Shown: in pieces, positions 2,640 through 33,442 of the stretch
Layout of the letters: every line of letters begins with the position of its first letter
Position numbering within the stretch: the first letter of the stretch is position 1
IMG/VR virus record: IMGVR_UViG_3300042898_002099
Length of the DNA: 64,000 nucleotides
Reading direction: 5' to 3' (one strand)
Source of the DNA: a virus
Made by a program: the position numbers and the translations under genes
Notes under the pieces: generated by a model
Database searches by the model: none
What the model was told of the DNA's origin: nothing
The model's input: the letters and a program-made list of their open reading frames with translations, nothing else

Positions 2640-4249
2640 AATTCAATTCTGATAAATTTACTGTTTAAATCAATAACCATTCTACCATCAGTTGATCTTA
2701 AAATTCCTGAAGTAATAGTACCAGCATTTTGAGAAACTTCTGATAATGCGTTTGCCGTTACTGTGATACCAGTAAAAATATTTGCAACCAATTGAGATCT
2801 AGTAATAGTACCACTTACAATTTTTGTTCCGCTAATAGAATTGCTAGCAATTTCTACCCCTGTTATTGAACCGGGTTGTATTTTACCTGTCGTAACAGCA
2901 TTTGCGCCTAATTTACTAGATGTTACCGCTCCGTTAAACAACTCTCTTGTTGTTATAGTATTACTTACTAATTTTTCTCCAGTAATAACATTTGCTGCAA
3001 TTTTAGATGTTATTATTGCATTAGATGCTATCTGTACATTACCTACTTGGCCTGCATTTAGAACAATATTTGTTACAGTGCCACTTACACCTGGAGAATA
3101 AAAATCCCAACTAGTTTTAGTTGTATTTAAAATATAGCTAGTACCACCTACAATAATTAAATCGCCCGGATTAAATAGTGTTACATCTGATGGCAATGAT
3201 GCCAATGTTCTAACTCTTGCGGTGCCAGTATTTGCTGTAAATTGTTGTATTGTATTCCATGTACCGGAATAGATATATAACCCTTGATCTATACCAGATG
3301 TTTTTCTAAACAACTCAAATGCATTTGCTGTTGCTGGTAAAGAACCACCCGAAGAAATTCCTCCGCCTGCACCAGAAGAACTAGAAACATAATCACTTAA
3401 ATTTTTCCATGCATTATTAATAAAGATATAAGCAATTGACCCTACAACAACTGTTCTACCTGAATAATTTCCTGCATCGCCTACTACAGGCAACGTAACT
3501 AATACTTCTAGACCCGACGGTGCGCTAGATGTTATAACACTTGATAATGTTTTCCATTGACCAGAAATAAACAAATACGGTATAGCATTTGCTGTTTCAT
3601 AAAAGACTGTGCCTTCTGGCGCTGTCTGCGGTTTAACCGCACCTATAGCAAATGCTGTATCGCCTCTAAATCTTACCCATCTAGAATCGGAACCAGCTAA
3701 TCTTGCAATTGCAGAATCTGCCGGTAATCCTGTACCATTGCCTACGGGGTATTTAGAGAATACCCAAACATCTCCAGAATTAAATACAATCCTGCCTTCA
3801 TAGTTACCCAATGTCGGTAAAGATGAAACTACAGGAATACCATTAACAGTTACATTTGCCGTACCTGAACCAGTGACAACAGTAATGTTTGCGCCGCTTA
3901 TACCGCCAGTAAATGCGGCTAATCTAGCTAACACATAATCTTGTGTTGCTAATTCATTTGTATACCATTTAATAGTGCCATTCTCATTCAATATTAAAGA
4001 ATCTGCGCCGTTTAAAGAAAAGCCAATAACACCCGAGGCTTGTCTGTACATTCCGGTGTCTTTATCACCTTGCCAAGCATATCCTGGTAATATTTTAGAA
4101 TCAGATCCATAGCTTACAACTTGCCCGCCAGTATAAAGCGAATTAAAATTGTCGTTTACTTTGATGAAGGCATCGCGAAGTAAATCGCCGTCTCCACTAT
4201 TCGGTGTTGTTCCTACAAGAACATTTGGTAGATTTTTTGGGGCAGCCAT
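2636..4249 (-). CDS. Tail fibre / baseplate-attached fibre with gp9/gp10-type N-terminus
   Basis: N-term VGTTPNSGDGDLLRDAFIKVNDNFNSLY; repeated SLP..GNYxGR units; C-terminal ITxxKI-type short repeats. Confidence 0.75.
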   Translation of the reverse strand: MAAPKNLPNVLVGTTPNSGDGDLLRDAFIKVNDNFNSLYTGGQVVSYGSDSKILPGYAWQGDKDTGMYRQASGVIGFSLNGADSLILNENGTIKWYTNELATQDYVLARLAAFTGGISGANITVVTGSGTANVTVNGIPVVSSLPTLGNYEGRIVFNSGDVWVFSKYPVGNGTGLPADSAIARLAGSDSRWVRFRGDTAFAIGAVKPQTAPEGTVFYETANAIPYLFISGQWKTLSSVITSSAPSGLEVLVTLPVVGDAGNYSGRTVVVGSIAYIFINNAWKNLSDYVSSSSGAGGGISSGGSLPATANAFELFRKTSGIDQGLYIYSGTWNTIQQFTANTGTARVRTLASLPSDVTLFNPGDLIIVGGTSYILNTTKTSWDFYSPGVSGTVTNIVLNAGQVGNVQIASNAIITSKIAANVITGEKLVSNTITTRELFNGAVTSSKLGANAVTTGKIQPGSITGVEIASNSISGTKIVSGTITRSQLVANIFTGITVTANALSEVSQNAGTITSGILRSTDGRMVIDLNSKFIRIEL

Positions 4250-30789: not shown

Positions 30790-31052
30790 AATGGTAGTTT
30801 TCCCCGTTTTTTAAAATAATTTTGATCTTCTGCTTCTGATTGAATCTTATCTTTCAGAGACTGATTAATTAATTTAGACACAGACTCAATATCAATGTCT
30901 ACTTCATTACAATATTGTATAACAGCATCCATATAACCGATCTTTTCTCTAAACACTCGTTCTTCTATGTGTAGTGAAAATTCATTAGGTGATCTAAATT
31001 TTTTAGTAATAATCAAACTATCAGTTAAAATATATTGTACTTCTTCGTTCAT
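30786..31052 (-). CDS. gp33: Late transcription coactivator gp33
   Basis: FS..IE..V......YMDA...YC....ID.E.V.KLI...LK.KI..EA. Confidence 0.9.
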   Translation of the reverse strand: MNEEVQYILTDSLIITKKFRSPNEFSLHIEERVFREKIGYMDAVIQYCNEVDIDIESVSKLINQSLKDKIQSEAEDQNYFKKRGKLPL

Positions 31053-31720
31053 TGTGTTTCCGGGAAAAGAACCTCATCCATAAAATTCATAAACACATCT
31101 TTATCTACTCCGAAGTTAATCATCATCGCAGGTGTATGTGGATTTAATTTTTGGTTCTTACAGTAATTGTTATGTGCTTCTTTATAATTGTCTTTTGACT
31201 CTATACCTACATTATATAGGTAATAGTCTAGATTGTCAATAACCGTAGATGCTAGTTGATCAAATTCTTCTTGAGTTTGAATGTTTCCCGCCGCCAGCAT
31301 ATTTGGACTGAAAATGCGCTTAGCCCAATCTGGTAATTCTCTTGGTTTGTTCCAAGTAATTTTTGACATCTTATCCTGGTACCAATCATATGTTTTTGAG
31401 TCGCCAGTATGTGAGAAATCGTGGAATGCACCTGTAATTTTGTTTTGTCCGCATACTATGTCAAAACCAAAAATGGGGTCTGAGGAATTGTGATGCGGGA
31501 AGATACACATATGCATGACCCACATCTTTTTATGTTTCGTGGCATCTACAATCTCAATGTGTGCTCTACGAAATTTGTCAGAAGTCCAAATATAATTTTC
31601 CCACGTAAAATTATCAGACTCGTGTCTATATTCTGGCTTCAAATCTTCAGGTGTGTATGACTCTAATTTTTTAATAATATCTTTTGCAAGCTTGTTGGCC
31701 TGCGGCCACACTTCAATCAT
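31049..31720 (-). CDS. pcyX: Ferredoxin-dependent bilin reductase, PcyX type
   Basis: FRRAH.E.VD, WVMH.CIFP, PIFGFD.V.G.NKITG.FHDFS, RELP.WA..IFS..M.AAGN, YC.NQK.NPHT. Confidence 0.85.
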   Translation of the reverse strand: MIEVWPQANKLAKDIIKKLESYTPEDLKPEYRHESDNFTWENYIWTSDKFRRAHIEIVDATKHKKMWVMHMCIFPHHNSSDPIFGFDIVCGQNKITGAFHDFSHTGDSKTYDWYQDKMSKITWNKPRELPDWAKRIFSPNMLAAGNIQTQEEFDQLASTVIDNLDYYLYNVGIESKDNYKEAHNNYCKNQKLNPHTPAMMINFGVDKDVFMNFMDEVLFPETQ

Positions 31721-32246
31721 TATAATCTTTCAACATATTAATATTATGAGTAAATGCCACATTGGCTTCTTCGGCTAATGATACATTTAATTTCTGTCTC
31801 ACATTTGCAATTAGTTGTGGTAAATTTTCAAACTGAAACATTCTATTACTACCAGGTAATAATTTAGCTAACATTTGTCCGCCGAACATATCGCCCATAT
31901 GTCTTACATATACATGAGCTAACATTTTAGTTGTATCGTCTTTAATTGTTTCTAAATAATTAATATAATTAATTGTTGACGCATTTAACTTGCCACTGGA
32001 TGCCCCATCGCCTATTAATTCATTGTAGTCTAATTCGATTGCTTTTGCTCTTTTAATATTGTCTATACCTTTAAAAATACCTAGTCGTGAACCATGCCAC
32101 TCTAAATTTTGATACAGTACTAGCAATTGATACAAATAGTCAATATATTTGTCTCTGTCAACTTGACCTTTGAAAATTGATTTAATAAAAGGTTGCTCTT
32201 CAGCTTCCTTGTGTTTTTCCGAAGTTAATTCTTTTAATGTACTCAT
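31713..32246 (-). CDS. hemO: Heme oxygenase
   Basis: LKELT...H..AE, AHVYVRHMGDMFGGQ, EA..AF. Confidence 0.92.
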   Translation of the reverse strand: MSTLKELTSEKHKEAEEQPFIKSIFKGQVDRDKYIDYLYQLLVLYQNLEWHGSRLGIFKGIDNIKRAKAIELDYNELIGDGASSGKLNASTINYINYLETIKDDTTKMLAHVYVRHMGDMFGGQMLAKLLPGSNRMFQFENLPQLIANVRQKLNVSLAEEANVAFTHNINMLKDYND

Positions 32247-32851
32247 AAACCTCCCATTCCACCGCTAGGTGGCGGAAATCCCAAATATTGTCTGTGGTCA
32301 TATTTGTAATCTCTATACTTACCAAATTTATCTACATAATGTAGAAACGCTTGTGTTTGTCTTTCGCCTTTGTATTCATCTCGCCAATGTGGTAAGATAT
32401 CACCCTTGTAAACAATAAGATCTCCTGGTTCTAAAAAGATAGGAAAACGCTCACCTTTTAAATTATCAAACCAAATTTCCCAAGGTTCAGGATCTACAGA
32501 AATATTAACAGTGGTTGAAAATTCGCAACTTGGTCTATCAGTATGTTCTGTCATTACTGCACCTTTATAATATATCCTCGCATAGGTATAAGTATTATAA
32601 AGTTTTTTACCTGTTATATCTTCCATCATTGGTAACATTTGTACAGATAATGTTTCGAAACAAGCCGCAGAATAATAAGCAAAACTATTTGTTACTTGGG
32701 TATCACCAAACATAAATTTGTTTTCCTCACTTTGACCACCCTTCATATAAGTTACTCTTTTTAGTAACTCAAATTCCAAATCTAGATGTTCTACTAATTG
32801 AGGTTGAATTGCGCCTCTTACAACTTCATATAGATTGTCTTTAAATGACAT
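32243..32851 (-). CDS. 2OG-Fe(II) oxygenase family protein
   Basis: TY.YARIY, HTDRPSCE.S.T, GD..VYKG....HWR, Q.FLHY. Confidence 0.85.
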   Translation of the reverse strand: MSFKDNLYEVVRGAIQPQLVEHLDLEFELLKRVTYMKGGQSEENKFMFGDTQVTNSFAYYSAACFETLSVQMLPMMEDITGKKLYNTYTYARIYYKGAVMTEHTDRPSCEFSTTVNISVDPEPWEIWFDNLKGERFPIFLEPGDLIVYKGDILPHWRDEYKGERQTQAFLHYVDKFGKYRDYKYDHRQYLGFPPPSGGMGGL

Positions 32852-32864
32852 ATTATTCCTTAAT

Positions 32865-32900
32865 AAAAAAAGTAGGTTATTCTGTTACGAGGAAACCTAC
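32865..32900 (-). terminator. Hairpin + U-tract ending the tmRNA coding piece
   Basis: GTAGGTT...AACCTAC followed by T7. Confidence 0.65.
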
Positions 32901-33045
32901 CGAAACCCTAAGCAGCGTTTAGGCTGCTAAAGCGAACTGTTCGTCGTTTGCATTTACGTTTTTTGCTTCTTCGGCCGAGTTACCTCAACCCTGCGGGTTT
33001 CACATTCCCGAGCTGTCCACTCTGTTACTAATTGCCCTGTCGAAA

Positions 33046-33228
33046 CTATTCAGGCCCCTCAAAAAGATTTTTCCATCTGTCTAGTGCTTCGAAGTAGCTG
33101 ATCCAGACACATCCTTCACATCCTCTACCACAACACGTAGTTGGTTCTTGTGGCCTAGGATAAAAATCTTTTTGGTGGACCTGGGGGGATTCGCACCCCC
33201 GTCCAGAACACCGTTCTCTTTGCTTCAT
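33046..33228 (-). CDS. Small Cys-rich Oxidored-like (PF09791-type) protein overlapping the tmRNA
   Basis: [27 protein letters not shown] matches the PxEPxxCCGxGCxxCVWxxYxxxLxxW pattern; ATG 4 nt after upstream stop. Confidence 0.65.
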
Positions 33229-33232
33229 ACAG

Positions 33233-33442
33233 CTATAAAATATTAGTTAAATCTCCAACATGCACATATCCATCAACTTTTAGATTAGGATCGCTAATAC
33301 ACTCTAACAAGACATGCCTTTTATCAACATCGTCAGGATGAAAGTGTTTGACAACAAATTCATGTCCTCGATATTTGTCATAAAAAGGTTTGAATGGTGG
33401 TTTGTAAACCTTATCTAAAAATTTAACTTTTTGTGATAACAT
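33233..33442 (-). CDS. Hypothetical protein
   Basis: 69 aa. Confidence 0.55.

Follow-up and report, generated by a model that had tools for sequence, protein, structure and literature searches.

A PF09791-domain reading frame running through a permuted two-piece tmRNA gene in a T4-like phage genome

The window analysed here, the whole 64,000-nucleotide stretch of IMG/VR virus record IMGVR_UViG_3300042898_002099, derives from an uncultured T4-like phage (35% G+C, with matches to gp32, gp59, gp33 and PhoH). On its minus strand ARAGORN called a permuted tmRNA gene (33265-32828, tag ANDEQFALAA), which was also recognized by two Rfam models (RF04321, 121 bits against a cut-off of 47; RF01850, 101.5 bits against a cut-off of 84). 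The gene belongs to the circularly permuted, two-piece class of the beta type, with a tRNA-like domain, CCA and G3-U70. A 60-codon open reading frame overlaps both of its pieces, and the features of the locus are the following.

33442..33233, minus strand: upstream 69-aa ORF, its TAG at 33235-33233, 4 nt ahead of the ATG of the 60-codon ORF
33234..33173, minus strand: core of the tmRNA acceptor piece (the ARAGORN start at 33265 is a predicted boundary only)
33234..33229, minus strand: acceptor-piece strand of the inter-piece helix
33228..33046, minus strand: 60-codon ORF plus TAG, overlapping the permuted tmRNA gene
33228..33226, minus strand: likely start ATG, 56 nt ahead of the CCA end, no Shine-Dalgarno sequence
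33200..33184, minus strand: T-arm
33183..33173, minus strand: acceptor 3' strand and ACCA
33172..33058, minus strand: intervening segment (IVS), 115 nt, encoding a CC-x3-C-x2-C domain and a helix
33172..33162, minus strand: 5' arm of the IVS closing stem (also coding)
33072..33062, minus strand: 3' arm of the IVS closing stem (also coding)
33057..32828, minus strand: tmRNA coding piece, with G1 at 33057 the predicted RNase P site
32951..32919, minus strand: tag frame ANDEQFALAA plus stop
32851..31049, minus strand: downstream cassette of a 202-aa gene (PHROG 2954), a heme oxygenase (PF01126) and a bilin reductase (PF05996)

The initial annotation of this locus had described a frame that starts 4 nt past the stop of the 69-aa gene, crosses the acceptor piece, its ACCA and the IVS, and ends in the coding piece. 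The frame was recovered and every coordinate holds. Nineteen leader codons lie in the acceptor piece, the PF09791 domain lies in the IVS, and three codons and the stop (33048-33046, 9-11 nt past G1) lie in the coding piece. The ACCA itself (33176-33173) is read as CAC CAA (His-Gln). The perfect 11-bp stem described as closing the IVS is also there, pairing 33172-33162 with 33072-33062; it is lengthened by A76-U and C75-G and stacks on the acceptor stem, and folding of the IVS gave a z of -4.6. The acceptor 5' strand in the coding piece is GGGCCUG, whose G3 pairs with U70, and the ATG adjoins the 3' side of the helix that joins both tmRNA pieces. A promoter scan of the window found no minus-strand site near the ATG, cultured phage records contained no close relative, and PHROGs has no family for the ORF.

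The proposed identity of the product was borne out by a PF09791 match over residues 24-54 (E 1e-11, 44.8 bits against a gathering cut-off of 24). In the phage alignment four cysteines and the final tryptophan are invariant, although the search motifs favoured these cysteines. The structure model (mean pLDDT 72) combines a disordered leader with a helix predicted confidently at residues 37-56, and its best shape match in the atlas was again PF09791 (TM 0.53); fold searches against solved structures gave generic helical matches only, none above Z 3.6, which speak neither for nor against a particular fold. The only sequence match in the PDB was 7zm7_o, a chain of Chaetomium complex I, and the paper on PDB 7ZM7 contains nothing on a cofactor of the PF09791 domain. 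The human PF09791 protein OXLD1 affects complexes I and V (PMC12413873). Our literature search on the family found no cofactor or activity given for the domain, and no paper using the term PF09791. The four conserved cysteines make it reasonably likely that the protein is a small metal-binding (Fe-S or zinc) accessory. It is most likely related to Burkholderiales genes: the nearest bacterial copies are mostly in this order and, together with the beta-type tmRNA, they suggest a betaproteobacterial host. Many bacterial copies (L340, L343, L348 and other Burkholderiales genomes) are fused behind a DUF1653-like domain.

Relatives were gathered with the full peptide, with the domain alone, with the tmRNA T-arm DNA, with a domain DNA motif in metagenomes and, as a fifth route, with a frame-blind pattern (CCA followed by the Cys motif). 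Along a spanning tree of 45 IVS haplotypes there were 145 synonymous versus 52 non-synonymous changes (dN/dS ~0.10). The ratios within three IVS subgroups were 0.05, 0.04 and 0.17, so selection acts within every one of them. The seven sequences recovered through tmRNA T-arm DNA alone gave 0.17 (p 6e-12), and ten helix codons outside the search and Cys motifs gave 0.18. Variable columns amounted to 23/31 at third codon positions versus 12 and 12 at the other positions, the other five reading frames of the IVS contain stops, and IVSs are either 115 or 109 nt long, a 6-nt difference equal to two codons. Stops or frameshifts in relatives, proposed at the outset as signs of a decaying captured fragment, were found in none of them except for one possible dead copy, the database protein P0012, which looks frameshifted; among the tmRNA loci sampled by DNA there was no degenerate domain copy. 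These comparisons indicate that the IVS codons are under strong purifying selection, and the usual description of the IVS as a non-coding spacer does not fit here (dN/dS ~0.1).

The tmRNA is equally well preserved in these relatives. None of the seven acceptor pairs, G3-U70 included, varies across the 46 loci that bear the domain; the T-stem is fully paired throughout, by pairs of several types, and compensatory (A-U/U-A swap) and wobble changes preserve the IVS closing stem. Tag reading frames are intact as well; that of the window ends in AA and a stop. Given intact tRNA-like stems and selected IVS codons, both layers are maintained on the same DNA. Cleavage by RNase P and a 3' nuclease is the presumed processing route of permuted tmRNA precursors (PMC3985003), and this, with the conserved stems, predicts excision of the IVS to leave two mature pieces.

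As to where translation might start, all 42 true IVS copies returned by the frame-blind scan were in frame with an ATG 56 nt ahead of the CCA end; six further matches, located outside tmRNA, were discarded as chance. A canonical in-frame start within the IVS itself was seen at just one of 38 distinct 5' ends (L299, a TTG with no Shine-Dalgarno sequence). Near-cognate starts in the IVS are nowhere conserved in frame, and the triplet at IVS position 11 is out of frame and variable. Among haplotypes with the domain, 24/24 have no stop in the acceptor-piece frame, versus 28/40 among haplotypes of this family lacking the domain (p 0.002); counting only distinct versions of the variable 24 nt gives 17/17 versus 24/34 (p 0.02). 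An ATG plus open frame is present in 22/24 versus 21/40 (p 0.001); these are Fisher tests on loci found without reference to the leader, they count related haplotypes as independent, and the 81 loci include the same contigs more than once. The ATG taken alone proves nothing, because it is part of conserved tmRNA sequence adjoining a covarying helix and also occurs in 34 of 65 haplotypes without the domain. In the ACG-type loci (L014, L272, L423) an in-frame ATG lies 21 codons upstream and the stretch is open; this upstream ATG is also present in L147, a locus without the domain.

The amino acids of the leader are near neutral (dN/dS 0.81), position Cys7 is a cysteine in 9 of 24 haplotypes, and the same leader peptide is found in loci without the domain. 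Since the leader is kept open yet its amino acids drift nearly freely, we regard it as a passenger. The T-arm had initially been read as a second, similar Cys motif (CSGRGCES). The letters are there, but they appear to be a meaningless by-product of the RNA sequence, and the idea that this peptide forms a second metal site was rejected given the near-neutral leader and the inconstant Cys7.

Initiation is the weak point of a threaded gene. The acceptor ATG is almost never preceded by a Shine-Dalgarno sequence, and in most relatives promoter-like boxes end 12-17 nt ahead of it, suggesting leaders of ~6-11 nt; in Caulobacter, leaders this short support translation poorly (PMC8459731). Computed folding of nascent lengths left the AUG partly open until its pairing strand appears, ~140 nt past the CCA, which suggests a co-transcriptional window for ribosome loading. 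For the window genome and its close kin only, translational coupling to the 69-aa ORF is possible.

The IVS of related tmRNA genes holds a variety of other contents. Among 101 distinct related IVSs, seven carry the PF09791 domain, 23 carry unrelated small ORFs with their own start and a Shine-Dalgarno sequence, and 71 are of other kinds. The own-start ORFs (loci L081-L200), many of them hydrophobic mini-proteins, begin at IVS position 11 in 13 of the 23 cases and terminate within the IVS in 17 of the 23; the PF09791 cassette in the IVS lacks such a combination of its own Shine-Dalgarno sequence and in-frame start. The remaining 71 range from 13 to 342 nt and include types that recur (e.g. 86-88 nt), possibly structured RNAs; the IVS of L068 had no match in Rfam. 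In L066 a tRNA-like element fills the slot (~3069-3140; ARAGORN tRNA-Val(aac) at a relaxed threshold, weak Rfam match to the tRNA clan). The ~284-nt IVSs of L056, L096 and L129 contain an 86-aa Cys-rich ORF with its own Shine-Dalgarno sequence, by eye like YkgJ/CxxCxxCC proteins. As four acceptor haplotypes are found both with the domain and with different cargo, the cassette has moved from one tmRNA scaffold to another. Unusually long tags (26-27 aa) on otherwise similar tmRNAs in L008, L013, L048 and L236 suggest that the tag region has been swapped as well.

The same domain gene is also found beside the tmRNA. The sister phage L335 shares 86.6% identity with the window across 2.2 kb (87% nucleotide identity in the domain), and there the gene lies upstream of the tmRNA with its own ATG, behind a thioredoxin-like gene, together with remnants of both closing-stem arms. 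Upstream genes may have a stop that overlaps the tmRNA 5' end (L041, L334, L335), may read on through the acceptor piece, either in the frame used by the window, as a C-terminal tail (L234, L236, L261), or in another frame (L042, L260, L469), or may end within the tmRNA promoter (L464); other copies have no tmRNA nearby (L043, L230, L337, L467). The tmRNA-derived peptide can thus be N-terminal, C-terminal or absent, from which it follows that only the domain matters. In L469 (801-1183) a single tmRNA carries two genes: the domain gene extends across the acceptor piece, and immediately past the CCA, in the IVS position, an ORF of 61 aa begins with its own start. In L239, L240, L315, L318 and L466 the domain gene, in its upstream form, is kept and continues into an acceptor piece that is truncated; the remaining tmRNA is apparently deleted. 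A group of 102-aa proteins that clustered with the ORF turned out to be unrelated neighbours of tmRNA genes. An 84-column tree, weakly supported, leaves most of the upstream and free copies outside a single IVS group; the exceptions, which fall within it, are L335 and the L234 group. Read together, these layouts indicate that the gene is a long-term neighbour of the tmRNA that moved into the slot and probably also moved out of it, with which the weak tree is compatible.

The stop codon lies 9-57 nt past G1, always beyond the predicted RNase P site (46/46 loci), and the excised IVS would have no start and no stop codon (the one 5' end with a TTG aside). As start and stop sit in different mature pieces, only the uncut precursor could serve as messenger. 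We consider the following account likely. The IVS of the permuted tmRNA gene would act as a recombinational cargo slot, occupied here by a four-Cys PF09791 gene that has no start of its own and would borrow the AUG already present at the acceptor piece's 5' end. Ribosome loading would take place while the precursor is still nascent and uncut and its coding-piece strand, which later pairs beside the AUG, has yet to be made; in the window genome it would probably rely on coupling to the upstream gene. The ribosomes would translate the 19 passenger codons and then the IVS domain, terminating just inside the coding piece. On folded precursors, host RNase P would cut at G1 and trimming to the CCA would yield the mature tmRNA, destroying the message. 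The arrangement itself is real, while translation, its timing and the processing sites are deduced from sequence, translation from the evidence of selection.

Other readings of the locus have to be weighed against this account. That the IVS is a recently captured, untranslated or decaying fragment, or is conserved as RNA structure only, might be argued from the missing Shine-Dalgarno sequence, the apparently frameshifted P0012 and the good fold of the IVS. However, low dN/dS inside each of the three subgroups, variation mostly at third codon positions and the lack of degenerate copies in DNA-sampled tmRNA loci largely refute it, and we give it hardly any weight. Alternatively, translation of the domain might begin at a non-canonical start within the IVS or close to it, the template being the excised spacer or a transcript of its own, and the acceptor frame would be incidental. 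Other cargo genes do begin at IVS position 11, behind an AAGGA box, where the group of the window has similar letters, L299 has its in-frame TTG, and a frame with a one-in-three chance of agreement could descend from a single insertion. Against this, the near-cognate starts are not conserved in frame, the position-11 triplet is out of frame and variable, the excised IVS would offer no stop codon and stops are under-represented in the leader, all of which makes an internal start improbable.

Threaded translation from the acceptor AUG, our preferred reading, also admits a regulated version, in which the rate of processing sets the output: a cut at G1 would turn the transcript into a non-stop message with a tagged product, and the protein would be made only if processing is slow. 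The stop beyond G1 in every locus, set against own-start cargo ORFs that mostly end inside the IVS, would favour such an either/or switch, but the stop position is an automatic consequence of the frame and varies from +9 to +57, and the same gene has several layouts upstream of or apart from the tmRNA, which means that threading is unnecessary for its function. We consider such a switch unlikely, and are just as doubtful that a race between ribosomes and RNase P sets the fate of a dual-use transcript, with uncut molecules giving the Cys mini-protein and those cut first becoming non-stop messages that the phage tmRNA would tag for destruction; translation first and processing after, on the same molecule, could equally well occur as competition.

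The initial annotation had also placed the heme oxygenase and bilin reductase genes (HemO/PcyX) directly downstream and speculated that the product serves them. A 202-aa gene (32851-32243; PHROG 2954, labelled 'ferrochelatase') intervenes. The whole PHROG 2954/heme oxygenase/bilin reductase cassette sits between the tmRNA and gp33, and only some relatives have it. Both enzymes need a ferredoxin-type donor, and they lie near 10/27 domain loci versus 5/81 others, an enrichment confounded by kinship, which could be read as pointing to the product as their electron donor or cofactor partner. Yet both are missing from a complete 346.9-kb genome with a threaded gene, and so are not required partners; they are missing too from a 98%-complete genome with a free domain copy, and they are not near 17/27 of the domain loci. 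Sequence and fold searches with the domain gave no ferredoxin-like match. Such a partnership seems very improbable. What stands of the original threaded-gene interpretation is the PF09791 gene within an intact tmRNA, while the T-arm Cys motif and the service to HemO/PcyX fall away.

If the threaded reading is correct, the 'throw-away' spacer of a stable RNA can house a selected protein gene, and a functional tmRNA can have its T-arm and CCA end crossed by a reading frame, with the precursor alone as the message. Transcripts cleaved at G1 ahead of translation would become non-stop messages, themselves tmRNA substrates, and, should the race be real, tmRNA maturation would gate the expression of a redox or metal-binding protein. 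The locus would thus be a compact test case for competition between translation and tRNA-type processing. Genes of this kind would escape annotation pipelines in which an ORF is discarded once it overlaps an RNA gene. The phage protein, as a naturally minimal form of PF09791, offers a handle on the cofactor of a family that extends from bacteria to human OXLD1.

Two-piece tmRNAs are already known in phages, e.g. the OM43 phage Melnitz, and the locus resembles them in its aquatic T4-like phage source (PMC9004378). It has the hallmarks of permuted beta-type tmRNAs, namely the order acceptor piece, IVS and coding piece, G3-U70, CCA and an ANDE...AA tag, but it differs from known permuted tmRNAs, whose mature RNA is described as lacking the IVS, in that the IVS here is protein-coding. 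A 2025 survey of 97,179 sequences reported one tRNA and one repeat as IVS contents and homing endonucleases in introns, and mentions neither an IVS protein gene nor a frame through both pieces (PMC11915505). The homing-endonuclease genes in tmRNA group I introns are likewise protein genes within a tmRNA precursor (PMC11915505), but they are selfish genes in a self-splicing intron of a one-piece tmRNA, whereas the phage locus has no intron and a host-like mini-protein as cargo. In the literature checked, which was incomplete for key primary papers, we found no description of an IVS-encoded protein for tmRNA, nor of a selected frame with its start and its stop in different mature pieces of a stable RNA. 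The nearest analogue appears to be the S23-like ORF in the 23S rRNA IVS of Coxiella, also located in a spacer excised from a stable-RNA precursor, although that ORF is self-contained, lying wholly in the spacer, is decaying and is apparently not made in vivo (PMC4990558); the phage ORF, in contrast, is strongly selected and has its start and stop in the mature RNA pieces. As a protein it shares CC-x3-C-x2-C followed by a helix with the rest of the PF09791 family (OXLD1, 7zm7_o, and the stand-alone and DUF1653-fused copies of Burkholderiales), and it differs from them in being reduced to the minimal domain and in having a leader derived from tmRNA. In SgrS/SgrT, RNAIII and other dual-function bacterial RNAs, one transcript likewise combines a functional RNA and a message, but there the mature RNA is the message, whereas maturation of the phage tmRNA would destroy the reading frame.
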